A stretch of DNA of 32,567 nucleotides from a virus. Lineage: Duplodnaviria > Caudoviricetes. The translations under genes were made by a program, and so were the position numbers. Where the stretch lies: positions 1-32,567 of IMG/VR virus record IMGVR_UViG_3300022886_000005; one strand, written 5' to 3'. The notes below the pieces were generated by a model. It ran no database searches. It had not been told where the DNA came from and worked only from the letters and a program-made list of their open reading frames with translations. Shown in pieces: positions 1-28,907 of this stretch (position 1 is the stretch's first letter; each line of letters starts with the position of its first letter).

Positions 1-21
1 CATCGAGACCTGGGAGCCACC

Positions 22-183
22 ATGACCGAGCCCAAGCCCGAACCCCGCCACCGAGCCCCGGAAGCCTCGCTCAGCGACTCCGGGCGCTTTGACCCTGCCC
101 GCGTAGCCCGGTGGCGTGAGCAGGCCGCAGCAACCCGCTCAGAGCTGCGCACGGTGTCTCTGACCCGGCCGCGTGGCCGGTGA
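22..183 (+). CDS. Hypothetical protein (53 aa)
   Basis: ATG at 22 is preceded by ACCTGGGAG (8-16). TGA 181-183 overlaps the next GTG (GTGA). Below the ORF-track length cutoff. Confidence 0.6.
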   Translation: MTEPKPEPRHRAPEASLSDSGRFDPARVARWREQAAATRSELRTVSLTRPRGR

Positions 184-362
184 GGGCCGTAGCGCTCGGC
201 CTGGCCGTGCTCGGGGTGGCCATCCTCTGCGTGTCGGCCTGGGCGGCGTTCAACACCGTGGTCTACAGCTCGGCGCGCGTCTGGGCGGCGTGCCTGTTCG
301 CGCTCGGCATGGTGGTCACCGTGTCGGCCGGCATCGTCTGGCCGCTGAAGCCCCCGAAGTGA
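180..362 (+). CDS. Small membrane protein (2 TM)
   Basis: Two hydrophobic segments. GTGA overlaps on both sides. Confidence 0.75.
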   Translation: MRAVALGLAVLGVAILCVSAWAAFNTVVYSSARVWAACLFALGMVVTVSAGIVWPLKPPK

Positions 363-547
363 GTACCCCGGCGCGACGGCGCACCGATCCGCCAGACCTG
401 CGACCGTGGCTGGAGACCTACCCGCGCGGCCAGGTGCTCGCGCTGATGATCGCCCCGCAGGCGGCCTACGCTGCCGGGTCGCCGAGCCTGGCCGTGCTGA
501 TGCTGTTCGTCCTGGTCTTCGTGCTGGTTCGGGGCCGCCGGAAGTGA
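359..547 (+). CDS. Small membrane protein
   Basis: GTG at 359 overlaps the upstream stop. C-terminal hydrophobic helix followed by RGRRK. Confidence 0.7.
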   Translation: MSTPARRRTDPPDLRPWLETYPRGQVLALMIAPQAAYAAGSPSLAVLMLFVLVFVLVRGRRK

Positions 548-553
548 CTTTGC

Positions 554-598
554 CCCATGGGTTGCACGACTGTCCGCCCATGGGTTACTGTTCTCCCA
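554..598 (+). promoter_or_regulatory. Paired-CCCATGGG operator/promoter, copy 1
   Basis: CCCATGGG at 554-561 and 577-584. -35 TTGCAC 562-567, 18-bp spacer, -10 TACTGT 586-591, predicted +1 at A598. Confidence 0.85.
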
Positions 599-637
599 TC
601 GGCCCCGCAGGGGGGCCGAGAGCCTGGGAGGCAGAAC

Positions 638-814
638 ATGGAAGCTCTGATCGCGGTCTTGGTCTTGGCCCTTGTCTACGGGGTCAGCGCCGCCGGCCAT
701 GTCCTGTGGGGCCGGCTCCAGGAGGATGCCGCGTGGGACGAGAACGAGCGCCGGGACCGCCGGGAGCGTGCCCAGCTCGCCTGGAGCACCAGCGACCCGG
801 AAGCCGTCCGATGA
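638..814 (+). CDS. Small membrane-anchored protein
   Basis: CCTGGGAG-GCAGAAC-ATG start. N-terminal TM helix. Confidence 0.75.
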   Translation: MEALIAVLVLALVYGVSAAGHVLWGRLQEDAAWDENERRDRRERAQLAWSTSDPEAVR

Positions 815-969
815 CCGCCGTGTTCCTGCTGCTGGGCCTGCTGGCCGTCATCTGGATCGCCGGCGGCGCCTACAGCGCCCGGGAGGGCATGCGGGACCGC
901 TACGCCGCCCAGCGCAACCTGCGCGCGGCCTACGTCCGGGCCGGCAAGACCCCGCCGGACTACCTGTGA
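811..969 (+). CDS. Small membrane-anchored protein
   Basis: ATGA overlap with the upstream gene. N-terminal TM helix (MTAVFLLLGLLAVIWIAGG). Confidence 0.75.
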   Translation: MTAVFLLLGLLAVIWIAGGAYSAREGMRDRYAAQRNLRAAYVRAGKTPPDYL

Positions 970-974
970 GACCC

Positions 975-1009
975 CCCGGCCGCCGGTGACCCCGAGCCCG
1001 GCGGCCGGG
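975..1009 (+). other. Intergenic GC-rich stem-loop (12-bp stem)
   Basis: CCCGGCCGCCGG (975-986) and CCGGCGGCCGGG (998-1009). Confidence 0.6.
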
Positions 1010-1044
1010 TGCGTAACCGAAGCTCGGGGACCTGGGAGAAGCGA

Positions 1045-1239
1045 ATGGCGCGGCTGTGGCTCGGACAGGGAGAACCTGACCCGAACAAGACCAAGACGTG
1101 CCCGCTCTGCGGCGGGGACAAGACGATCACCGAGACCGTCAAGTCGGCCTACGGGCCCGAGAGCAAGCGGTACCACCCCGACTACGAACGGACGGTCACC
1201 TGTCCGACCTGCAACGGGTCGGGCCAGGTCCCGGCCTGA
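1045..1239 (+). CDS. DnaJ-type zinc-finger protein
   Basis: CPLCGG and CPTCNGSG motifs (CxxCxGxG type). Start follows ACCTGGGAG 1030-1038. Confidence 0.8.
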   Translation: MARLWLGQGEPDPNKTKTCPLCGGDKTITETVKSAYGPESKRYHPDYERTVTCPTCNGSGQVPA

Positions 1240-1248
1240 GGTTCCACC

Positions 1249-1274
1249 GGGCGGGGCCCGACCGGGCCCCGCCC
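1249..1274 (+). other. Stem-loop with GACC loop preceding the RBS
   Basis: GGGCGGGGCCC-GACC-GGGCCCCGCCC. The same core recurs at 5035-5060. Confidence 0.65.
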
Positions 1275-1296
1275 CCTACCTGGGAGACATCAGAAC

Positions 1297-1965
1297 ATGA
1301 ACGAGACGACCGTGCGCTACCGCACCGAGGGCCGCAACCCCGACATCTACACGCGACGGACCTGGACGCTGGACCAGAGCGACGCCCCGAACGTGGACCT
1401 GCTCCGCCGGACGCTGGAGTTCGTCACCGAACACCGCAACCTGCACGATCAGGGCCGTTGGTTCGGCTTCCGCGACACCGATGACATCGAAGGCACCTAC
1501 CCCACCGACAACCCCGAGGTGGTCGAGCGGGTCAAGGGCCGACTGGCCGAGGCGGGCACCGAGAAGGTCCCGGCGCTGCCCGACGAGCAGTGCGGAACCA
1601 CCGGGTGCCTGTTCGGTTGGGCTGCCGTCCTCGGTGGCGGACCGGTCACGGTGACCGTGATCCCGGCGCACAAGGACGCGTGGGGCGATCTGATCCCCGA
1701 GCAGGCTCAGCTGGAGCTGGACAGCATACGGGGCTGGCGGTTCGAGGGGGCCGACCTGCTGGACCTGAACCACGACAACGCCGAGGCGGTCAGCGCCCCG
1801 GGCAACTCGCTCGGCGACCTCTGGCGGATGGCCAGCATCATCACCGGGGGCGCCATCGTGGTGCCGGCCGAGTTCGCCAGCTACGACGGCCTCGCCGAGG
1901 CGGCCGGGCGTGACGCCGAGAACGCGACCGACCCGGACCGCTGCGACTGCGGGTGCGAGGACTGA
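1297..1965 (+). CDS. Hypothetical phage protein (CGTTGCLFGWA motif)
   Basis: 222-aa ORF with GC3-biased codons and a CCTGGGAG start motif. The Cys motif is of a type recurrent in actinophage proteins of unknown function. Confidence 0.85.
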   Translation: MNETTVRYRTEGRNPDIYTRRTWTLDQSDAPNVDLLRRTLEFVTEHRNLHDQGRWFGFRDTDDIEGTYPTDNPEVVERVKGRLAEAGTEKVPALPDEQCGTTGCLFGWAAVLGGGPVTVTVIPAHKDAWGDLIPEQAQLELDSIRGWRFEGADLLDLNHDNAEAVSAPGNSLGDLWRMASIITGGAIVVPAEFASYDGLAEAAGRDAENATDPDRCDCGCED

Positions 1966-2069
1966 TGGCCACGCGCTCAGGTGGCCGGGGGCTCAGCCCC
2001 CTGGTCACCTGGGCGCTGGTCCTGGTCCTGCTGGTGCTGTTGGCCAGCGGCTGGGACGGCGCCCGATGA
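1965..2069 (+). CDS. Small membrane peptide (34 aa)
   Basis: TGATG overlap upstream and ATGA overlap downstream. Single TM segment LVTWALVLVLLVLLA. Confidence 0.6.
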   Translation: MATRSGGRGLSPLVTWALVLVLLVLLASGWDGAR

Positions 2070-2257
2070 TGACCTGGGAAGCCGCACTGAGGGCCCGTGC
2101 CAGCGGGCACGGTGCCGACGCGGATGCGGCCCGGCTGGAGCTGGCCGAGCTGTCCCGGCTGCGCGAGATCGAGAGCGCGGCACGTGGGCTCTACCTGAAC
2201 GACAGCCCGACCGCCTGGCAGTACCTGACGGACGCGCTGGTCGGCACCAAGCGCTAA
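2066..2257 (+). CDS. Hypothetical protein
   Basis: ATG at 2066 is coupled to the upstream stop. The ORF ends exactly at the next promoter element. Confidence 0.7.
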   Translation: MMTWEAALRARASGHGADADAARLELAELSRLREIESAARGLYLNDSPTAWQYLTDALVGTKR

Positions 2258-2301
2258 CCCATGGGTGGTGGAATACCCGCCCATGGGTTACGTTGAACGA
2301 G
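2258..2301 (+). promoter_or_regulatory. Paired-CCCATGGG operator/promoter, copy 2
   Basis: CCCATGGG at 2258-2265 and 2280-2287. -10 TACGTT 2289-2294. Non-consensus -35 (TGGTGG). Confidence 0.75.
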
Positions 2302-2442
2302 ACGTAGGGCAGTCCCGGATCCGGGAGCGCGCCCGGCCAGGTCGGGGGACCTGGCCACCCGAGGGTCGGCCGCAGCTGGGGAGCGGCGGCCGACCCTCCC
2401 ACCCGGCCCGGTGGCGGCATTCGTCACCCGGCCGTAGTGCCC
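2301..2442 (+). ncRNA. Putative structured RNA or 5' leader with four tandem hairpins
   Basis: Stems at 2307-2334, 2335-2356, 2361-2398 and 2404-2434. Two GGGG loops. G-U pairs in the last stem favour the + strand. Begins at the predicted +1 of promoter copy 2. Confidence 0.55.
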
Positions 2443-2477
2443 AAACGATCACCTGGGAACACAGAGAGGACAGACCC

Positions 2478-2675
2478 ATGGCATGGGGAAGTGGCAAGGG
2501 GAACGGCAGCAACGCGGGCTCGGACGGGGCCAACGCCCCGAAGGGTGCGGTCGGCAACATCAGCGCCGCGCAGATGCGCGACCTGGAGCGCCGCGCAGAG
2601 ACCCGCAGCGACGAGGAGACCGCGCACTACGTGGCCCTCCAGCAGCAGAGCTACGAGAAGAGGAATCAGAACTGA
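2478..2675 (+). CDS. Hypothetical protein (paralog of the next gene)
   Basis: GAGGA RBS. TGATG overlap downstream. ISxAxxxDLxRR motif. Confidence 0.75.
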   Translation: MAWGSGKGNGSNAGSDGANAPKGAVGNISAAQMRDLERRAETRSDEETAHYVALQQQSYEKRNQN

Positions 2676-2860
2676 TGGCCTACACCCGGGGGCGCGACGG
2701 CGCCGAGACTCCGCCGGCCCGCAGCACGATCAGCGATGCGGACTGGGAAGACCTCAACCGCCGCCGGGGCGCTCGGTCCAACGACTACGAGACCGACGAC
2801 CAGTACGCCGAACGAACCCGACGGTCCGAGGACCAGCGCCAGAAGCGGGAGCAGAGCTGA
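2675..2860 (+). CDS. Hypothetical protein (paralog of the previous gene)
   Basis: TGATG overlaps on both ends. ISDADWEDLNRR motif. Confidence 0.75.
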   Translation: MAYTRGRDGAETPPARSTISDADWEDLNRRRGARSNDYETDDQYAERTRRSEDQRQKREQS

Positions 2861-2991
2861 TGGGGCTGCGCGACGAGTGGGCCAAGACGGTCGACCTGGA
2901 CGACTACCGGGCCGAACTGGAAGACAGGGGCGCAACGCCTGAGGACGTCAATGCCGCCGTGGAAGACCTGCGGCGCCGACAGGAGAGCTGA
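2860..2991 (+). CDS. Hypothetical protein (43 aa)
   Basis: TGATG overlap with the upstream gene. GC3-biased codons. Confidence 0.65.
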   Translation: MGLRDEWAKTVDLDDYRAELEDRGATPEDVNAAVEDLRRRQES

Positions 2992-2993
2992 CC

Positions 2994-3647
2994 GTGAATC
3001 CGCGCCCGCCCGCTGCTACCTGCCCCTCGTGCACCAAGCGCGTGGAGCCCGTGGAAGTGGGCGGGCGCTTCCCCGTCCACTACGTGCCAGGCACGCCCCG
3101 GCGTCGGTGTCAGCCGACACCGACGATCGTCCGCCGCTACCACCTGGTACACCCGTGCATCACCTGCGCCGCGTTGCCCGAGCGCCCGGCCGACTGGTCC
3201 CTGATGAATGCCGACGCCACCGAGTGGCGTCCCGAGACTCCCCGCCCGCTCGATCCCGAGTCCGGCCCCCGCCTGCCCGAGTGCGTCACGCACCGGCGGG
3301 CCCGCCTGGCGGCCCAGAAGGCCCGTAGGCGCGCGAGTGCCCGAGTGCGCGACCGGGGAGTGGCCGAGGAGGACCGTGACGAGCTGTGGGCTGCGCAGGG
3401 CTCCGCGTGCATCTGCGGGCGCGCGCTCACCAGCACCGGCAAGGCCCCGACGCTGGACCACGACCACCGCCGAGCCGCCGGCCACGACCACGACACCGTG
3501 AAGGCGTGCCGCCGGTGCGCGCGCGGGGCCCTGTGCGACACCTGCAACCGCATCCTGGTCGGGCGCTATTCGCCGACGCAGCTGCGGATGGTGGCGCGCT
3601 ACATGGAACACCCCACCGCCGAACTGCTCGGCTGGTGGGACGACTGA
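2994..3647 (+). CDS. Recombination endonuclease VII-family (His-Me finger) nuclease
   Basis: LWAAQGSACICG...LDHDH...RGALCDTCN matches the T4 endonuclease VII signature. Extra N-terminal Cys motifs. Confidence 0.85.
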   Translation: MNPRPPAATCPSCTKRVEPVEVGGRFPVHYVPGTPRRRCQPTPTIVRRYHLVHPCITCAALPERPADWSLMNADATEWRPETPRPLDPESGPRLPECVTHRRARLAAQKARRRASARVRDRGVAEEDRDELWAAQGSACICGRALTSTGKAPTLDHDHRRAAGHDHDTVKACRRCARGALCDTCNRILVGRYSPTQLRMVARYMEHPTAELLGWWDD

Positions 3648-3663
3648 TCGAGAGGACTCCACC

Positions 3664-4452
3664 GTGGGAAAGATGGGCCTGGGGAGCATGACCCCCGACG
3701 AGATCGCCAAGCGTTGTGAGGCACGCGGGGCTCGGGTGATACGCGACGGGCACATCTTCAAGGTCTACCCGGGCGACCCACGCAAACCCCCACTCTCGTT
3801 CTCCGCACTGCACGTCGGCGCCCGAGGGGCTGCCCGATCGAACCTTGTGTCAGACCTGCGCAAACGTGGGATTGACGTCCTGGCAGACACTCCGGCGGAT
3901 CAGCCGCCGGTGATCACAAAGAAGGAGCCAACCGTGGTCGCACCAACCGAGCCAACTCGCCCCCCGGCCGAGGACCGGACGAACATCAGGGGCAACGGCG
4001 ACTCGCCCTACGTCCAGCGCCCGACCGTGGTGCCGTTCGACTACCGCAAGGCGTACGAGGACGTGAAGGGCCAGGTGGCCGCACTGGCCAAGCGCCTGGA
4101 GGAGTCCGAGACGACCACGCTCGGGATGCTGGAGCCGATCCAGGCGCAGCTGACCGAGATGGATGCCCGGCTGGAGACCGTGGCACCCAAGCCCAAGCCG
4201 AAGCCGCCCTCGACCTCGGCCATCTGTCGCCGGGAGGTGTTGGCCTTCTTTGCCGCTGTGCCGGCCGGCTTCAAGGCCAGTCCCTCGACCGTGGAGGCCA
4301 ACATCGCTGACCGGCTGCCGGCCGACCGGGCCAAGACCTCGGTTGCGTTGGCCTGCCAGGCGCTCCAGAAGGACGGAAAGTTGGCCGGCGGTGCGCGCGG
4401 GATCTCGGCGACCATGGGCCTGTACTGGCGCGAGGAGCCGAAGAAGGACTGA
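3664..4452 (+). CDS. HicA-like N-terminal domain, coiled coil and C-terminal winged-helix-like domain
   Basis: N-terminal EIAKRCEARGARVIRDGHIFKVYP...NLVSDLRKRG fits the HicA alpha-beta-beta-beta-alpha pattern. The C-terminus has a helix-helix-helix-wing pattern ending LYW. Alternative start at 3688. Confidence 0.6.
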   Translation: MGKMGLGSMTPDEIAKRCEARGARVIRDGHIFKVYPGDPRKPPLSFSALHVGARGAARSNLVSDLRKRGIDVLADTPADQPPVITKKEPTVVAPTEPTRPPAEDRTNIRGNGDSPYVQRPTVVPFDYRKAYEDVKGQVAALAKRLEESETTTLGMLEPIQAQLTEMDARLETVAPKPKPKPPSTSAICRREVLAFFAAVPAGFKASPSTVEANIADRLPADRAKTSVALACQALQKDGKLAGGARGISATMGLYWREEPKKD

Positions 4453-4465
4453 GAAGAAGTTCTAT

Positions 4466-4510
4466 CCCATGGGTTGCGCGGGCCGTGACCCATGGGATAG
4501 TGTTCCTTCA
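4466..4510 (+). promoter_or_regulatory. Paired-CCCATGGG operator/promoter, copy 3
   Basis: CCCATGGG at 4466-4473 and 4489-4496. -35 TTGCGC 4474-4479, 18-bp spacer, -10 TAGTGT 4498-4503, +1 at A4510. Confidence 0.85.
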
Positions 4511-4551
4511 TCGGGCCGGACAAGCCGGCCCCCGAGGCCCTGGAGGCCCCG

Positions 4552-5028
4552 ATGTCCGCTCAGACCTCCGCCCCCCGCCCCTTCGTTGACGGGATCGAGA
4601 AGGCCGCCTACCAGGCCGGGCACGTCAGCCCGATCATGGCCAACCTGGGCACCCCGCCGGCCATGCCGACCCCGGCGCAGACCGACGCCGAGCTGATCTC
4701 GCACCTGTACGACGTGGCTGAGCGCCAGGCCGATCAGCGCCGGGTTGACGCCCTGCGGATCACCGAGCTGGAGCGCCGGGCCGAGCACGCCGAGAAGGTG
4801 GCTCGTACGGCGATGGCCGACTACAGCGAGACCCTGCGCCAGGCGGAGAACAAGGACGCGGCCTACGCCGAGGTCCGGCACGCCCTGGCCGAGGCAGAGG
4901 ACCAGCGCGACAACTACCGGCGCCAGCTGGGCGCCGCCCTGGCCAAGATCCAGGAACTGCGGGCCGGTATCGGCGCCCTGGCCTCGGCCGACGAGCGCGC
5001 GGGGCGCCGCTGGCTCGGGCAGGGCTGA
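4552..5028 (+). CDS. Coiled-coil hypothetical protein
   Basis: CCTGGAGG RBS. Heptad-rich C-terminal half. Confidence 0.85.
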   Translation: MSAQTSAPRPFVDGIEKAAYQAGHVSPIMANLGTPPAMPTPAQTDAELISHLYDVAERQADQRRVDALRITELERRAEHAEKVARTAMADYSETLRQAENKDAAYAEVRHALAEAEDQRDNYRRQLGAALAKIQELRAGIGALASADERAGRRWLGQG

Positions 5029-5034
5029 CACACT

Positions 5035-5081
5035 CCGGGGGGCCCGACCGGGCCCCCCGGCCCCCGGGGCCGACTGGCCCC
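5035..5081 (+). other. Two stem-loops (GACC and GACT loops) preceding the RBS
   Basis: CCGGGGGGCCC-GACC-GGGCCCCCCGG (5035-5060) and GGGGCC-GACT-GGCCCC (5066-5081). Confidence 0.6.
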
Positions 5082-5098
5082 ATCACCTGGGAGCAACG

Positions 5099-5506
5099 AT
5101 GAACGAGCGCATGATCCGGGCCAAGCTGGTCGTCGAGTACATGGCCGGCGACGAGGAGGGCGGCAGCACGCCGGTCGGCGAAGTCACGATCGAGGCCGAC
5201 GTCGCGGCCGAGGAGGGCAGCGTGTCCCTCGGGGTCGCCCTGCTGCTGGGTCGCCTGACCGGAGCGACCGTGAACAAGGTCCAGGAGCACCTGGGCGAAG
5301 AGTCCGCGTCCGTGCAGGTGCTGCGGTACCTGGCCAGTCACGCCGAGGGTGACGAGCGCGCGCAGCGTCTCCTGGCGGCCTTCGCCAGTCAGAACGACGG
5401 CCAGGCTCGGGACAAGCTGCCCGACGGTTCGGCGCCCTCGATCGAGGAGCTGAACGAGATGTTCCGCCGGGCCGGTTACGGCACCGGTGAGCACGGTAAC
5501 GACTGA
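5099..5506 (+). CDS. Hypothetical protein
   Basis: ATCACCTGGGAG-CAACG-ATG start. GC3-biased codons. Confidence 0.85.
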   Translation: MNERMIRAKLVVEYMAGDEEGGSTPVGEVTIEADVAAEEGSVSLGVALLLGRLTGATVNKVQEHLGEESASVQVLRYLASHAEGDERAQRLLAAFASQNDGQARDKLPDGSAPSIEELNEMFRRAGYGTGEHGND

Positions 5507-5535
5507 CCAACGCCACCGGGAGCCCCGGCCCCTGC

Positions 5536-5579
5536 CCCATGGGTAGGCGCCGGGGCTCCCATGGGTTACTGTGGAGGAA
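5536..5579 (+). promoter_or_regulatory. Paired-CCCATGGG operator/promoter, copy 4 (leaderless), embedded in an inverted repeat
   Basis: CCCATGGG at 5536-5543 and 5558-5565. -10 TACTGT 5567-5572, with ATG 6 nt later. Overlapped by a 12-bp inverted repeat at 5518-5529/5549-5560. Confidence 0.8.
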
Positions 5580-6037
5580 TGATGACGACCAACGAGACCG
5601 GCCGAGGCGCGCCGGAGCACATCGGTGATGGCGTCTACCGCGTGCCGGTCACGCTGGACGACATCCGGGAGATCCACGACCGCACCACCTGGCCGGCGAT
5701 CCAGGAACTCAAGCGCCGACGCGACGAGTTGATCCGTGAAGCCCTGGCCCACGGCGATCTGACGCAGGCCGAGATCGTGAACGCCGGCATCCTGAGCGAC
5801 GGGCACATCTACCGGCTCCGGAAGGGCCAGACCTCCGGCGCGACCCGAACCGACGCGCCGGAGCAGACCGAGCTGGGCCAGATCATGGCCCTGCGGGCCG
5901 AGCGCACCCGGCTGGTCGGGGAACTGGAGCGCCTGGGCGGTGACCTGGGCATCCCGCTGGACGCGCTCCAGGTGCGCAGTCGCGCACTGGGCCAGCGGCT
6001 CTCGGTCGTGGAGGCCGAGTTGCACGAGTTCGAGTAA
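5579..6037 (+). CDS. Helix-turn-helix DNA-binding protein with C-terminal coiled coil
   Basis: RDELIREALAHGDLTQAEIVNAGILSDGHIYRLRKG fits an HTH pattern. Confidence 0.7.
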   Translation: MMTTNETGRGAPEHIGDGVYRVPVTLDDIREIHDRTTWPAIQELKRRRDELIREALAHGDLTQAEIVNAGILSDGHIYRLRKGQTSGATRTDAPEQTELGQIMALRAERTRLVGELERLGGDLGIPLDALQVRSRALGQRLSVVEAELHEFE

Positions 6038-6073
6038 GACCGAGCAGTACCGAAGTCCTGGGAGGACAGAGCA

Positions 6074-6298
6074 ATGCCGAACGTGACCAACCCCTGGTGG
6101 AAGGACGCCAGCGACTCCGAGGAGATCGCGGCGACTCTCGACGACATGGCCGACGAGCTGTCCGCCGAGGCCACCACCCGACGCCAGCGTGCGGAGGTGG
6201 GCCGGCTCAAGAAGGCCGCCGCCGAACTGCGCACCCAGCACGACATTCCGGCACCGCCGCCGACGATCGCGCGGCGGGCCCCGAGCACCGAGGAGTAG
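6074..6298 (+). CDS. Hypothetical protein
   Basis: CCTGGGAGGACAGA start motif. Confidence 0.8.
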   Translation: MPNVTNPWWKDASDSEEIAATLDDMADELSAEATTRRQRAEVGRLKKAAAELRTQHDIPAPPPTIARRAPSTEE

Positions 6299-6302
6299 GC
6301 CA

Positions 6303-6575
6303 ATGACCGAGCGCGATCACCTGGACGTCGAACAGGCTCGGGTCCGTCTGGCGGCCCTGGGCCTGTCGGCCGTGGCGGCCCTGGTCGCCGTGGTCGCGCT
6401 CGGGCTGACCCTGTGGCTGTGGGCCATCGGCGCGGCCCTGTTCGCCGCCGGGTCCAGCGCCTGGGCGGCGCGCATGTACGCCGCCCAGGAGAACCGTCGG
6501 ACGATGCTGGCCGCGCAGGGACGGGCGACCCGCGCCTACGCCGATCCGTATGCCGACCCTCCCGAGGAGATGTGA
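6303..6575 (+). CDS. Membrane protein (2 TM)
   Basis: GAGGAG RBS. Long hydrophobic stretch. Confidence 0.8.
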   Translation: MTERDHLDVEQARVRLAALGLSAVAALVAVVALGLTLWLWAIGAALFAAGSSAWAARMYAAQENRRTMLAAQGRATRAYADPYADPPEEM

Positions 6576-6577
6576 CC

Positions 6578-6745
6578 GTGGGGATCTTCAAGCGCAAGTG
6601 CTGGTGCGGGTCCGGGTTCGAGCAGGGCTTCTGCAACCACCAGGCCGCCGTCAAGGAAGCCACGACCGGGCGCCCGACCCGGCTTCAGAAGGCCGTGGCC
6701 ACCAACGGCAACCCGACCGTGAAGAGGCGCCGCAGGCGCGCCTGA
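6578..6745 (+). CDS. SEC-C-like zinc-binding basic peptide
   Basis: CWCGSG...C-x-H motif and an Arg-rich C-terminus. GAGGAG RBS. Alternative GTG at 6572. Confidence 0.7.
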   Translation: MGIFKRKCWCGSGFEQGFCNHQAAVKEATTGRPTRLQKAVATNGNPTVKRRRRRA

Positions 6746-6756
6746 TACTGATCCGT

Positions 6757-6787
6757 GACGGCCGGGCCCCTACCGGGTCCGGCCGTC
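6757..6787 (+). other. Stem-loop preceding the RBS
   Basis: GACGGCCGGGCCC / GGGTCCGGCCGTC, a 13-bp stem with one G-U pair. Confidence 0.6.
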
Positions 6788-6809
6788 CGTGTCCCTGGGA
6801 GTGGACGAC

Positions 6810-7031
6810 ATGGCAGTGACCTACCGGACCGAGCGCCGGACCGTGAATCTGTGCGACGACTGCGGCGACGTCGGCCCCTACGCCGAAACGCATGCCCTGG
6901 TGGCCGTGATGAACGGCGACATGGACCACGCAGCCGAAGTGCTGCGCGAGTCCACCGCGATGGAGCTGAGCCAGCTGGAGGACTACGGCGACATGCTGGC
7001 GCAGGCCGCCGCACAGGCGCGGGTGCGCTGA
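6810..7031 (+). CDS. Hypothetical protein (CxxC)
   Basis: CCTGGGAGTGGAC start motif. TGATG overlap downstream. Confidence 0.75.
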   Translation: MAVTYRTERRTVNLCDDCGDVGPYAETHALVAVMNGDMDHAAEVLRESTAMELSQLEDYGDMLAQAAAQARVR

Positions 7032-7492
7032 TGCCGGCCGGTCGCCCTGCGCCGGACCCGCGCAAGGTCGCCCGCGCCGGCGTGATGCGCCGGGACGGCG
7101 CGTACCTGCACGAGATCGCCCGCGCGCTCGGGGTCTCCACGGAGACCGCGCGCAGCTACGTGCGGATCTTCGAACACGCCGAGCAGTGGGTGCCGGCCTA
7201 CAACCGGGCCCAGATCGTCGCCGACGCGACCGGGCTGCTGGAGGAACTGAAGCTGCGCGGACTCAAGCGCCTGGACGAGCGCGGCGCCGAGTTCGAGAAG
7301 GTGGCCCCGGTCGTGGTGACCGTGGTCCGGGAAATCCTGAAGATCCACGGTGGGTACGCGCCGACCTCGGTCACGCTGCACACCGACGAGCCGCGCCCGG
7401 ACCCGGAGATGATCCGGGCCATCCGTGAGGCGCAGGCCATCGCCGCGCGAGACCGTGCGGCGATCGATGACGACACTGGGAGTGGACCATGA
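7031..7492 (+). CDS. terS: Probable terminase small subunit (N-terminal HTH)
   Basis: HTH (MRRDGAYLHEIARALGVSTETARSYV) followed by helices, 153 aa, upstream of TerL. Confidence 0.65.
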   Translation: MPAGRPAPDPRKVARAGVMRRDGAYLHEIARALGVSTETARSYVRIFEHAEQWVPAYNRAQIVADATGLLEELKLRGLKRLDERGAEFEKVAPVVVTVVREILKIHGGYAPTSVTLHTDEPRPDPEMIRAIREAQAIAARDRAAIDDDTGSGP

Positions 7493-8886
7493 GCGCGGGG
7501 ATGAGCAAGTACGCCGAGGCACTGGCCTTGGTCATGGGGTGGACGGCCGAGCTGCGCCGCCGTAACGGGCGCGTGGACCGTGAGCGGCTGGCCGATGCCT
7601 ACGTGGCCGGGCACGTGCTGCGCACCGAGTTCCTGGCCACGAAGGAGGCCGAGCGCGCACTGACCGCGCTACGCGCCGAGCTGGCCATCGCCGAGACCGT
7701 GAAGCTCTGGAAGCAGGTGACATCGGGCGAGCCGGCCACGGTGGGCGGCGTGCCGCTGGACGACGGCGAGGAGAAGCCGCGCCTGGCCGCGCTGATGGCC
7801 GAGCCGGCGCCCTGGGAGGGCTGGAGCGGTCCGACGCCGGCCAGTGTGGACGAAGGGCCCGGGGATGTCGCGGACCGCGTAACGGCCGATCTGGACGGTG
7901 CGGCGGCCCTGCTGGCCGAGCTGATGGTCGACGAGTCCGCCGTGCCCGAACCGGTGGCGTCGCGCAGCTCGGGCAACATTCTGCGGGCCCTGGCCGGCGG
8001 TGCCGAGGCCCTGCGCCTGCTGGCCGGTCGTCCCCGGGTCACCGTGACCGACCGGTCCGAGCTGAACGCCGAGCTGCTGCGGGAGATCCAGGAGTACCGC
8101 GCCGCACTGGTGGACGCCGAGGATCGGGCGGCCTCCTACCGGGCCGAGCTGGGCAATCGGGAGCCCTGGGAGGTCGAGCATGCCGAGCTGATCCACCAGC
8201 GCGACCTGCTGGGCCAGGACGTGGAGCGCCTGGAGGACCAGTTGGACACGGCGGTTCGGAACGCGCGTGACCTGGAGAAGCGGGCGGAGAACCTGGAGGA
8301 GACGCTCAAGCTCCGTGAGCGCGAGCTGGCCGAGGCCCGTCAGACCCTGCGCCAGCTCCAGCACCCGAACTTCTTGCCGGACGGACTGAAGGACGTCCTG
8401 CGGGTGCTCGGGAACTGGGCACCGGGCTACGACGAGATGGACCCGCAGGAGCTGCGCGACACCACGCTGGAGGTGGCCCGGCGCGTCGTGGCCGAACTCC
8501 AGGCCGAGAAGCGCAGCCACGCAGAGCTGCGCAGCGCCCTGAACTCGATCCCCAGCATCGGCCCCCGGAACTCGGCCGGACCACTGCTCGATCGGGTCAA
8601 GGCCGCCGTGGCCATGCGCGAGCACACCGAGCGCGTCATCGCCGAGCGGGATCAGGTGATGGATGACCGCGACAACTGGAAGCGCCGGGCCAAGGAAGCC
8701 GAAGCGGCCAGCGTCCGGGTCGGCAACATGGCCCGGGAGGCGAACGAGCGGGCGCACCGCGCGACCCGCGATCTGGGCCTCGCGCACAGCGAGCGCGACG
8801 AGTGGCAGAAGCGGGCCGATCAGCTGGACGCCGAGCTGACCGCCGAGCGGCGCCGCGCCCAGGGTCCGGGACTGGTCGAGCGATGA
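7489..8886 (+). CDS. Long coiled-coil protein of unknown function
   Basis: 465 aa with extensive E/R/A/L heptads. ATGA overlaps with both terS and terL. Confidence 0.85.
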   Translation: MSAGMSKYAEALALVMGWTAELRRRNGRVDRERLADAYVAGHVLRTEFLATKEAERALTALRAELAIAETVKLWKQVTSGEPATVGGVPLDDGEEKPRLAALMAEPAPWEGWSGPTPASVDEGPGDVADRVTADLDGAAALLAELMVDESAVPEPVASRSSGNILRALAGGAEALRLLAGRPRVTVTDRSELNAELLREIQEYRAALVDAEDRAASYRAELGNREPWEVEHAELIHQRDLLGQDVERLEDQLDTAVRNARDLEKRAENLEETLKLRERELAEARQTLRQLQHPNFLPDGLKDVLRVLGNWAPGYDEMDPQELRDTTLEVARRVVAELQAEKRSHAELRSALNSIPSIGPRNSAGPLLDRVKAAVAMREHTERVIAERDQVMDDRDNWKRRAKEAEAASVRVGNMAREANERAHRATRDLGLAHSERDEWQKRADQLDAELTAERRRAQGPGLVER

Positions 8887-10427
8887 TCGCGCTACCGGCG
8901 ACCATCGACCGAGACGCCCTGTTCGAGCCCTGGACGGTGACCGAGCGGTACCACGGTGAGTGGACGCCGGCGATCGAGGTCAACGGCCAGTTCCGTCGGG
9001 ACGTCACTCGGTGGTCGCCGGTGCGCTTCGCCCTGGTGTACCTGCCGCACCTGCTCCGCAGTCCCGAGACGGGCAACGTGTCCAGCCTCGCCGAGCACCA
9101 CTTCGCCATGGCCAGGGCGGCGGCGAAGTGGTCCCGGCCGGGCGCGTGGCGAGATGCCTGGGTGGCCCCGCGTGGCGCGGCCAAGACCACGTGGACCGTG
9201 ATCCTGGTGCTGTGGGCGCTCTGCCACGGTCACCGCCGGTTCTTCGGCTGGCTCTCGGACTCCAGTGATCAGGCCCGGCTGGCCATGGCCACGTTCCGGA
9301 ACGAAGTCGGCTCGAACGCGGTCCTGCTGCGCGACTTCCCGGACATGGCCCCGCCGCGCACCGGCACGCGCGGGGCCCGGGACTCGCAGGACACCTACAC
9401 CGCACGCGGCGGGGCGATCCTCGCCGTGCGCGGGATCGGGGCGCGGATCCTCGGACTGAACATCGGTGGGAAGCGCCCAGACGGTCTGATCTGCGACGAC
9501 ATCGAGCCCGACGCCTCCAGCTACTCCGTAGCCGCCCGCAGGAAGCGCCTGGAAACCCTGCTGAACACGGTGCTGCCGATGAACGAGCAGGCTGCCGTGG
9601 TGCTGATGGGCACCGTGACGATGTACGACTCGATCATGCACGCCGTGGTGCGCAAGGCCCGGGGGGAGGGCCGGCAGGAAGCCTGGATCGACGATGAGCA
9701 CTTCACCGTGCACTACGTGCCGGCGATCGTCGACGACCCGGCCACCGGGGTCCGGCGCAGCTTCTGGGCGCAGCGCTACACGCTGCGCTACCTGGAGAGC
9801 ATCGAGCACACGCTGAACTACCTGCTGAACTTCGCCGGCTGGCCGCCGCTGCCGGGCGGGCACAACTGGAAGCCCGAGACGTTCCGCTACGGCGGGCTGC
9901 CATGGCTGGACGGCAAGCCGCTGGTGATGCAGATCGACCCGGCCCCGACGGCGGACCCGACCTCGGACTACACGGCGTTGGTGGTCGGCGGGCTGGTGCC
10001 GGTCGGGCCAGCGTTCCCGGGCGTGACGGACAAGCCCCGCGCGGTGATCCTGCACGGCTCGAAGTTCCGGACCACGCCGGGCCAGCTGGCCGAGCGAGTG
10101 AAGCGCCACCTGGCAGCGAACCCGGCGATCCGCACCGTGCGTGTCGAGGGCAACCAGGGCTCGGCGCTGTGGATCGGGGTCATCGAGCCGATCCTTCCGC
10201 CGGGCGTCGAACTGGTGGTGCACGCGGCCGGGCGCATGGCGAAGATGGACCGGATCGCCCGCGCGCTGTACTTCGCCGAAGAGGGTCAGGTCTGGCACGC
10301 GCAACGCCTGCCCGAGGCCGAGACGGATCTCCAGATGTGGGGCTCGGCCGCGCTGATCCACGATGATCTACCCGACGCCTACGCGCACCTGGTGCGGCAT
10401 CTCCTGGAGCCGTTCGAAGAAGAGTGA
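8883..10427 (+). CDS. terL: Terminase large subunit
   Basis: Walker A APRGAAKTT, Walker B LICDDIE, coupling motif LMGT, and RNase H-like nuclease residues IDPA / SDYTA / HDDLPDA. Confidence 0.93.
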   Translation: MIALPATIDRDALFEPWTVTERYHGEWTPAIEVNGQFRRDVTRWSPVRFALVYLPHLLRSPETGNVSSLAEHHFAMARAAAKWSRPGAWRDAWVAPRGAAKTTWTVILVLWALCHGHRRFFGWLSDSSDQARLAMATFRNEVGSNAVLLRDFPDMAPPRTGTRGARDSQDTYTARGGAILAVRGIGARILGLNIGGKRPDGLICDDIEPDASSYSVAARRKRLETLLNTVLPMNEQAAVVLMGTVTMYDSIMHAVVRKARGEGRQEAWIDDEHFTVHYVPAIVDDPATGVRRSFWAQRYTLRYLESIEHTLNYLLNFAGWPPLPGGHNWKPETFRYGGLPWLDGKPLVMQIDPAPTADPTSDYTALVVGGLVPVGPAFPGVTDKPRAVILHGSKFRTTPGQLAERVKRHLAANPAIRTVRVEGNQGSALWIGVIEPILPPGVELVVHAAGRMAKMDRIARALYFAEEGQVWHAQRLPEAETDLQMWGSAALIHDDLPDAYAHLVRHLLEPFEEE

Positions 10428-10471
10428 CCCATGGGTTGCACGCCTCTCTCCCATGGGTTAGTGTTCTCCCA
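10428..10471 (+). promoter_or_regulatory. Paired-CCCATGGG operator/promoter, copy 5 (leaderless)
   Basis: CCCATGGG at 10428-10435 and 10450-10457. -35 TTGCAC, 17-bp spacer, -10 TAGTGT 10459-10464, then TCTCCC and ATG at 10471. Confidence 0.85.
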
Positions 10472-10734
10472 TGAACAAGTTGCTCCTGGTCCTGGCGCTG
10501 GTGGTCCTGCTGGTCTCCCCGGCGCCGATCCGGGGCTTCCACTTCTGGCCGGGCGCACCGCTGGACACCAGCCGCGTGGCCTGGCTCTCGCCCCTGGGAG
10601 GACAGATGGACCAGCCCAACCCCGCGCAGGCTCTGGCGATCGCCGAAGCCGCCGCCGCGACCGAGAAGGCCGAAGAGGCCGAGTACTGCCAGACCGACGA
10701 AGAGTGCCGCCTTTGGGAGGTGCTGGGCCGATGA
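10471..10734 (+). CDS. Secreted or membrane-anchored hypothetical protein; possible internal start at 10606
   Basis: N-terminal signal-like MNKLLLVLALVVLLVS. In-frame ATG at 10606 is preceded by CCTGGGAGGACAG. Confidence 0.65.
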   Translation: MNKLLLVLALVVLLVSPAPIRGFHFWPGAPLDTSRVAWLSPLGGQMDQPNPAQALAIAEAAAATEKAEEAEYCQTDEECRLWEVLGR

Positions 10735-10805
10735 TCGGAGCCATCCTGCTCGGCCTGCTGATCCTGGTTCTGAGCCTGGCCGCAGCGCTCTACTTGCCGG
10801 AATGA
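10731..10805 (+). CDS. Small membrane peptide (24 aa)
   Basis: GGGAGG RBS. ATGA overlaps on both sides. Single TM helix. Confidence 0.55.
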   Translation: MIGAILLGLLILVLSLAAALYLPE

Positions 10806-11194
10806 CCCTTTCACCTGAGGAGATGAACATGGCCACGTACCACTTCACCGACACCCTGGGCCAGGCGATCGAAGAAGCGCGGGCCGCCAGCGAGAAAGCC
10901 AACGGCCTGTTCGGGCTCCTGGCCGACGAACTGGCCGCCGAGCGGGAGATGCACCGAGCCGAGGTCATGCGGCTGGTCGAGCGCGCCGAAGAGGCCGAAG
11001 CCGAGCTGGTGGCTCAGAACAAGCGGGCCGACGACCGGCGCCGCGAACTGGAGACCGGGCTCCAGCGGGCGCCCGAACTGCCGGACTGGGTCAAGGCGCT
11101 GGACGACAAGCTGGCCGGGAAGACCCCGCAAGCCCAACAGGACGACATCGCCAAGAAGCTGCGCCGGCTGGCCGAGTACGAGAAGTGGATCTGA
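10802..11194 (+). CDS. Coiled-coil hypothetical protein
   Basis: GC3-biased ORF. Start is 10802 (ATGA overlap) or 10829 (after TCACCTGAGGAG). Confidence 0.8.
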   Translation: MTLSPEEMNMATYHFTDTLGQAIEEARAASEKANGLFGLLADELAAEREMHRAEVMRLVERAEEAEAELVAQNKRADDRRRELETGLQRAPELPDWVKALDDKLAGKTPQAQQDDIAKKLRRLAEYEKWI

Positions 11195-11199
11195 CCCCG

Positions 11200-11282
11200 T
11201 ACAACACGAAGTGCCCCCACCGATGACCCGGTGGGGGCACTTCGCTGTGGGATTCGATCACCTGGGAGTAGACAGAACCACG
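11200..11282 (-). ncRNA. Putative trans-acting antisense small RNA complementary to the CCTGGGAG RBS motif of early genes
   Basis: The - strand reads GUGGUUCUGUCUACUCCCAGGUGAUCGAAUCCCACAG followed by the terminator hairpin. TAGGAT -10 box lies 7-8 nt upstream. No start codon follows the + strand motif copy. Confidence 0.6.
11207..11244. terminator. Bidirectional intrinsic terminator between the convergent arms
   Basis: Perfect 16-bp stem CGAAGTGCCCCCACCG / CGGTGGGGGCACTTCG with a 6-nt loop. On the - strand it is followed by TGTTGT. Confidence 0.85.
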
Positions 11283-11288
11283 GCGCCG

Positions 11289-11318
11289 ATCCTACGGCCC
11301 GTAGTACGTGATCCACCA
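11289..11318 (-). promoter_or_regulatory. Putative promoter for the antisense sRNA
   Basis: -10 TAGGAT (11294-11289). TGGTGG at the -35 position (11318-11313), the same hexamer as in promoter copy 2. Confidence 0.5.
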
Positions 11319-11331
11319 GGTGACGTCAGCC

Positions 11332-11766
11332 CTACTGGTCGTTGGGCAGCTGCCCGTCGCCGGGCTCGGTGTCGGGCTCCTCGGACGGCCGGGTCGGTCC
11401 GGCCGGGATCCCGTCGCCGCCGTCGCTCGGGCCAGGACCAGCCGGCCCGTCCGGCACCGGGGCGGACTGGTCGGCACCCATGGCCTCCAACGCCGAAATC
11501 GGGCCCTCGAAGCCGTCCAGGGCCGCGTTCACGGCCTGGGCCACCTTGCTGTCCGAACCGGCCGTGGCGTCCTCCAGCGCCGAGCGCAGGTCGCGCAGGT
11601 CGCTGGCCAGTTCGTTGGTGGCGTCGTTCAGGCGGGCCACCAGCTCATCCGCACGGGTCATCAGTCGTGCCTCCATCTCGTCGATCGCATCGAGCACCGG
11701 CGCCAGCAGTCGACGCCGGAGGTTCAGGGTCCACGCCATCAGGATCTCCAGCGGGGTCGGGAACAT
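11332..11766 (-). CDS. Coiled-coil hypothetical protein (last gene of the late operon)
   Basis: TGATG overlap with the upstream gene. Helical core and Pro/Gly/acidic tail. Confidence 0.8.
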
Positions 11767-28608: not shown

Positions 28609-28907
28609 AGGTGGTTCATCCCGTGCCATCCCGTTGCATTCCGGTTCATCGGTGCCACCAGCACGGCCGAGCCGCTAGCGTGGAACACGTACCCAGGTCT
28701 CGGAGGCACAGGCGTTGACCGGCCGGTGGTGCGACTAGGGCGCGGCCCCGTCGGGAGTTGGAGCCCGGCGGGGCCGCCGTCGTATCCTCTGGGCAGGGCG
28801 CGGCTAAGCCCCGGGGACGCCCGGGTGAGCACCGCGCACGCACCGCGCGGGCGGGCTGCGTCGAGACCGGACCCCCGGGACGGCAGGGTCGCAGCCCCCC
28901 GCGCGGC

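Follow-up and report, generated by a model that had tools for sequence, protein, structure and literature searches.

The phage fragment analysed here (32,567 nt or 32.6 kb, 70.8% GC; the whole stretch is called the window) carries at the junction of its two gene arms a short unit that is probably the gene of an approximately 80-nt trans-acting antisense RNA, by which about 11-12 tagged non-structural genes of the phage would be repressed as a group. Judged from the sequence, this RNA would be transcribed on the minus strand from position 11281 and end after the hairpin at the arm junction. The seed is expected to anneal to the tagged Shine-Dalgarno regions of about 11-12 non-structural genes of the phage itself, which would block 30S loading on roughly a dozen non-structural mRNAs. 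In this way, the RNA may limit or shut off early proteins at the passage to the late phase. We infer its transcription, its pairing in vivo, the sign of the regulation and its timing from the features described below.

Tagged gene starts and the orphan unit of the window

Small non-structural genes, an endonuclease VII gene and a terminase-like gene are found in the plus-strand arm of the window (1-11194), and the minus-strand arm (11332-32510) contains the head, tail and lysin genes. A 16-bp hairpin at 11207-11244 marks the point where the two arms converge. Relatives of the capsid and tail proteins were found in Pseudonocardia and other actinomycetes, which makes an actinobacterial host likely for this soil phage. 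A close relative spanning the same stretch has a completeness rating of 44%. No DNA-level match of the region to annotated phages was found, a terminase scan of genome contigs found nothing, and the four DNA runs compared over the window revealed strain variants only.

The tag CCTGGGAG occurs 11 times on the plus strand of the window and never on the minus strand, against an expectation of 2.43 ± 1.55 from 100 dinucleotide shuffles, none of which reached 11. Eight of the 11 copies lie 5-10 nt upstream of called starts, two (7811 and 8165) fall inside gene 7489-8886, and the copy at 11261 is the orphan at the arm junction. The binomial p value of 2e-11 for the association with starts is optimistic, because the gene caller rewards sites that resemble a Shine-Dalgarno sequence and two starts were set by hand, so that the association is somewhat circular. 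Every tag site quoted in the earlier note was found in its place. The genes behind these sites, which the note had called early, are non-structural genes of the plus arm, their early expression being presumed.

All tagged sites are on the plus strand, and for most of them a net duplex energy was predicted. The best site is 6794..6806 before gene 6810-7031 (-16.6 kcal/mol). Duplexes are also predicted at 7476..7487 before gene 7489-8886 (-15.6 kcal/mol), 5082..5093 before gene 5099-5506 (-14.2 kcal/mol) and 1030..1038 before gene 1045-1239 (-12.7 kcal/mol). The sites 8..16 before gene 22-183 and 1278..1296 before gene 1297-1965 reach -10.7 kcal/mol each, 6057..6072 before gene 6074-6298 reaches -10.2 kcal/mol, and a bulged tag at 10811..10822 before the last gene of the plus arm (10829-11194) reaches -8.3 kcal/mol. 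A 13-nt match at 2446..2458 lies upstream of the Shine-Dalgarno sequence of gene 2478-2675 (-6.9 kcal/mol). Further tags precede gene 638-814 (623..637) and an in-frame internal ATG at 10606 of the ORF 10471-10734 (10593..10604; kept in the related phage G005). An extra predicted target at 6290..6300 before gene 6303-6575 (-14.3 kcal/mol), a gene absent from the list of the earlier note, matches the other flank of the seed.

The 5' domain of the predicted RNA, which contains the seed, has a contiguous match of at least 8 nt to 9 of 31 leaders of non-late genes and to 0 of 23 late leaders. At the same length, the seed matches 0-1 leaders in four more distant phages. Among 59,103 scan windows covering both strands, with the leaders themselves masked, the orphan ranks first for 8-nt matches to gene leaders. 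The eight best seed duplexes have a mean of -31.0 kcal/mol versus -21.7 ± 1.7 kcal/mol for 100 base-shuffled seeds, none of which was as good. When opening costs on both sides are counted, the 11 best targets are all genes of the plus arm (-16.6 to -8.0 kcal/mol). A duplex over the Shine-Dalgarno core that blocks 30S binding is an established mechanism of sRNAs. Since the duplexes predicted here lie over the GGAG core, spanning about -17 to -3, repression would be the expected outcome. An adaptor function that bridges 16S rRNA and mRNA was considered and rejected, as the SD-like stretch in the window seed is not kept in the other elements.

The orphan (11255..11278, plus strand) is the longest copy of the tag and has no start codon behind it, as had been noticed before; its complement is the seed. 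The TAGGAT -10 box and the downstream 16-bp hairpin described on the minus strand are both present. The predicted -10 box (11289..11294; TAGTAT in G005) lies 7 nt above G11281, the predicted start, and no -35 consensus was found upstream of it. Below the start, the predicted 5' domain (11245..11281, minus strand) forms a weak stem-loop with the seed. It is followed by the putative terminator at the convergent junction (11207..11244), a stem of 16 bp, all Watson-Crick, which has a weak U-tail on the minus strand and was not picked by a simple terminator scan. The idea that the ends of the RNA pair and expose the anti-RBS segment as a loop held only in part: the weak seed stem-loop is predicted, but the fold of the 5' domain by itself is not better than that of its shuffles (z = -0.32) and only CCCA is fully open in its MFE structure. 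Opening the seed core costs approximately 1.9 kcal/mol. Rfam covariance models gave 0 matches over the window at the gathering score, and the sub-threshold matches are hairpin hits only (E of at least 0.08). An imperfect inverted repeat of the CTAC-N-GTAG type (11289-11307), which is more perfect in G005, overlaps the -10 box and is a possible regulator site.

Promoter-like repeat units were observed on the plus strand of the window at 554-600, 2258-2300, 4466-4505, 5536-5575 and 10428-10470 and on the minus strand at 28608-28565 and 28190-28149. In these units, two CCCATGGG palindromes flank TTGCAC/TTGCGC and TACTGT/TAGTGT/TAGTCT hexamers, and four units run straight into apparently leaderless starts. 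They look like the ESAS of cluster K mycobacteriophages, and CCCCGGGG-type versions occur in the records L082, L083, G001 and G002. A long non-coding leader at 2297-2445, between a promoter repeat and gene 2478, folds strongly (-96.5 kcal/mol over 150 nt, a value without shuffle control). The structural arm is headed by a gene with an ADP-ribosyltransferase domain (PF03496; 30807-32510), which adjoins the endolysin and prohead protease genes. A non-coding run of 138 nt (28655-28792) is identical in G005 and represents the longest intergenic identity between the two.

Conservation and covariation in related phages

The terminase-like protein of G005 is 92% identical to that of the window, and positions 11240-11290 of the window are identical in G005 (51/51). 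This is modest evidence, because intergenic identity between the two is 88% and eight longer identical runs occur in uncalled regions. The stem of the junction terminator is rebuilt in G005 at 70% identity.

The unit of -10 box, seed and terminator was found at the same junction in seven related phage records. It is located on the late strand in G005, G003, G014 and L089. In G001, G002 and G007 it is inverted and follows the last early gene on the early strand. The eight elements use four kinds of tag, namely CCTGGGAG, GAACGGAGAC, GAGAGGAC and CCTGGAGG, and each kind matches start sites of its own phage. Seed and targets thus covary in relatives, a check that had been set beforehand. In G003 (complete, 73.8 kb), GAACGGAGAC-type starts go together with a seed hairpin that has a complementary loop. 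Among the leaders of this phage, 8 of 85 non-late and 0 of 35 late ones match the seed, and no leader of five other phages does. G014 contains 19 copies of GAGAGGACA, one of them at the junction, and 17 of the 18 others have a start within 14 nt. The same tag type is present in L089, where an 8-bp stem surrounds the seed and the terminator ends in U5. The tags of G001, G002 and G007 are CCTGGAGG-type.

In all eight elements, a TANNNT box precedes the seed hairpin by 5-7 nt on the antisense strand, and a terminator hairpin follows it. The boxes were picked by eye, the background of TANNNT in these genomes being 0.0003-0.0006 per position, and the box of G003 overlaps a stop codon. Because the antisense strand keeps the -10 box and the terminator although the unit flips, the comparison of the records speaks more for an antisense RNA acting in trans than for a DNA operator or a decayed gene.

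Unrestricted scans of G001-G003 and G007 were dominated by GC-rich words. When only intergenic regions were considered, the candidate held or shared the top rank in the window, G005, G007 and G002, and it shared the second rank in G001 and the third in G003. The energy test was not significant in G001, G002 and G007 (16/100, 98/100 and 26/100 shuffles as good) and borderline in G003 (6/100). At the 8-nt level, the seeds of G001 and G002 match just one own leader each, and at the 7-nt level 7/55 and 3/27, respectively; the tag match of G001 has a bulge, and starts are under-called in G002. Single cases fit the asymmetry of G-U wobble (orphan A versus target G; window and G003), the ungapped count being confounded by GC content. 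No element was seen at the junctions of G006/L087, L082, L083 and G015. Among 43 further loci screened, two were positive; many of the 43 have another layout or few early genes, and a locus of low GC content was left out. In G015/L096, a stretch rich in C and U at the junction was rejected as an element because no tag set matches it.

Several other features of these records were observed. L006 (12292-12468) and L096 (6843-7076) share a sequence at the junction that contains a tiny ORF and, ahead of a terminator, a CU-rich stretch. A conserved non-coding stretch of approximately 150 nt lies behind the terminator of the terminase-like gene in L082 (3630-3790) and L083 (3490-3640). It opens with a TAACCT box, contains common blocks and hairpins and is possibly another structured RNA. 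G003 encodes a Ro60/TROVE protein (38332-40017; L242:332-2017, minus strand) and a DpdA DNA-modification protein (34396-35190). Two terminase large subunits of different PHROG families (phrog_9 and phrog_38) are encoded in each of G003 (9983-11722 and 35414-37063) and G001 (31087-32709 and 38236-39891), and the phrog_9 gene of G003 is flanked by small subunit and portal genes. The terminase-like gene of the window (8883-10427) is of the phrog_38 type and lies amid non-structural genes; therefore, it may not encode the packaging enzyme.

Alternative readings and timing

The same pairing and repression could be exerted by the 3' end of the late mRNA or by a processed fragment of it, an explanation that we regard as rather unlikely. 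The last structural gene (11332..11766, minus strand) has its stop 38 nt above the -10 box, and late read-through would therefore also carry the seed. In five records (the window, G005, G003, G014 and L089), the late strand indeed carries the seed, immediately downstream of the last late gene, and a comparable loop in mycobacteriophage Adephagia, described below, belongs to the leader of the late transcript. However, the late mRNA accounts neither for the rare TANNNT box at a near-fixed distance in 8/8 elements nor for the position of the unit on the early strand in G001, G002 and G007. Adephagia and the five records with the unit on the late strand point to late timing of the RNA; the three records in which the unit is inverted do not. 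Control of lysogeny, which the earlier note had also proposed, is less likely, because two near-complete relatives, G003 (100% complete) and G014 (92%), have no match to a tyrosine integrase or serine recombinase.

Pope et al. left binding of a protein or of an RNA open for the start-associated sequence (SAS) of cluster K mycobacteriophages (PMC3203893), and the tag could likewise be a protein site, either a DNA operator or stoperator or the target of an RNA-binding translational regulator, with the orphan as an extra site or decoy. Several SAS phages show no mirror copy, and orphan and targets share their DNA orientation in five records, both of which would fit such a site. We nevertheless consider it unlikely, as G001, G002, G007 and cluster K have the orphan in inverted orientation, and promoter, stem-loop and terminator are always on the antisense strand, whereas a decoy RNA would be expected to carry the sense motif. 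In addition, the window phage has separate palindromic operator-like repeats over its promoters. The predicted pairing specificity and the Ro60/TROVE RNA-binding protein encoded in G003 would also be compatible with an RNA whose pairing with the tags has a positive effect, by activation or stabilisation of the messages, or brings a phage protein to them; the location of the predicted duplexes over the GGAG core argues against this, and we think it very improbable. Hardly credible is a decayed or non-canonical (ACG) start of a plus-strand gene, with the tag as a mere strong Shine-Dalgarno sequence. The ACG at 11280 does open a plus-strand frame of 401 codons, but this frame is only 83 codons long in G005 and shows a GC3 of 0.65 versus approximately 0.9 in real genes, and it is therefore a shadow frame. 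Neither the 51-nt identity nor the inverted recurrence in relatives is expected of a decayed site. A decayed plus-strand start, which had been named as one of the outcomes that would refute the RNA, is thus largely ruled out.

Relation to cluster K SAS and to known antisense RNAs

The SAS of cluster K was described by Pope et al. and is also known from EF Microbacterium phages (PMC3203893; PMC7302621). It has been unexplained since 2011 (PMC3203893), and the text of later papers still calls its role 'not known' (PMC11373665, PMC12699233). Four K1 phages carry a single SAS copy in opposite orientation (PMC3203893). As far as described in these texts, the SAS of K and EF phages and the window tag are both asymmetric motifs that contain the Shine-Dalgarno sequence a few nucleotides before starts, both occur at non-structural genes only and in a single orientation, and both are accompanied by paired palindromes over nearby promoters. 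The K1 phages and the window have one orphan copy each, that of the K1 phages being inverted. The motifs differ in sequence and belong to unrelated phages: the window tag is an analogous, CCTGGGAG-based one and does not match the 13-bp cluster K consensus. Furthermore, the window orphan has a -10 box and a terminator and covaries with the tag, whereas the SAS orphan is not treated as an RNA in the accessible text.

In Adephagia, the single SAS copy in inverted orientation forms the 10-nt loop on top of a long stem, at approximately 58,685. The stem is conserved through compensatory changes and the loop is invariant in 4/4 aligned K genomes. Late transcription 'appears to initiate' in the gap between genes 92 and 93, which holds the loop (PMC11373665). 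A scan for the anti-SAS loop with a pattern that included part of the stem gave 24 hits, 16 of them in contigs of 56-63 kb, where a strong stem presents the loop in fully open form; 11 of these lie close to the right end and 5 close to the left end. In Kratio the loop is also found near the left end, in a different stem, and Unicorn has a degenerate loop only. No anti-SAS loop was detected in the whole genomes of the SAS-rich phages Pixie, TM4 and Aminay, in the right ends of ZoeJ, G011 and G012, or in AnnaSerena. An inverted match in Aminay at 36069 was rejected as an RNA, since it reads as the SAS of a leftward start. SAS can therefore exist without a visible mirror, and an RNA accounts at best for the SAS of part of cluster K. 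No report of an anti-SAS RNA was found in the literature searched, mostly open-access text without figures or supplements. On balance we lean slightly towards the view that actinobacterial phages have repeatedly built translational regulons of anti-tag RNA and phage-specific tag, the latter placed around the Shine-Dalgarno sequences of at least a dozen non-structural genes, and that the cluster K SAS has its missing partner in such an RNA. An anti-tag RNA at the early/late boundary would switch the tagged genes off together, and tag and seed would co-evolve in lock-and-key fashion.

The C4 antisense RNA of phages P1 and P7, with which the P4 CI RNA is grouped as a like system, has the antirepressor operon as its target. 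C4 is approximately 77 nt long and its loops act in trans by pairing with mRNA of the phage itself; the pairing partly covers ribosome-binding sites, and changes in the loops alter its specificity (PMC5320573). C4 and the window RNA are thus alike in being phage-encoded, in their similar length and in trans pairing, predicted for the latter, at ribosome-binding sites of the phage itself. C4 is described as a three-stem cloverleaf that is processed by RNase P and has a role in immunity. In the window element, in contrast, a single seed hairpin precedes a terminator, the predicted targets are scattered and number about a dozen, no Rfam family matches, and the three stem-loops with two recognition loops of C4 are absent from its predicted fold.

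In Staphylococcus, the C/U-rich loop seed of RsaE pairs with the Shine-Dalgarno sequences of many mRNAs. The window RNA would differ in that its targets are the phage's own genes and that its seed extends past the Shine-Dalgarno core into a phage-specific tag which differs between relatives. As in trans-encoded sRNAs, a short seed covaries with distant targets. An sRNA gene of this kind has its own promoter and intrinsic terminator; of these, a candidate -10 box and a hairpin are present in 8/8 elements, with the missing -35 region, the weak U-tail and the negative terminator scan reported above for the window. By analogy, the window element would work like a trans-encoded anti-SD sRNA and like C4 of P1 and P7. 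Base-pairing phage sRNAs that steer development include P22 sar, lambda OOP and aQ, VP882 VpdS and lambda PreS (PMC12197685). According to the accessible text of this review, they are cis-antisense to one gene, or Hfq-dependent with mostly host targets, and a phage sRNA that targets a private tag of many phage genes is not mentioned there (PMC12197685).

Known phage sRNAs act mostly on one gene or on the host. If the proposed function is true, it would add an RNA-only layer to the infection programme, in which one RNA governs a tagged set of the phage's own genes. It also offers, via the Adephagia hairpin loop, a specific test of the long-open role of SAS in cluster K mycobacteriophages, a group that is used in phage therapy. 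Pairs of tag and seed that differ between relatives could serve as orthogonal translation switches in actinobacteria and, more speculatively, such differences might influence the competition of co-infecting phages.
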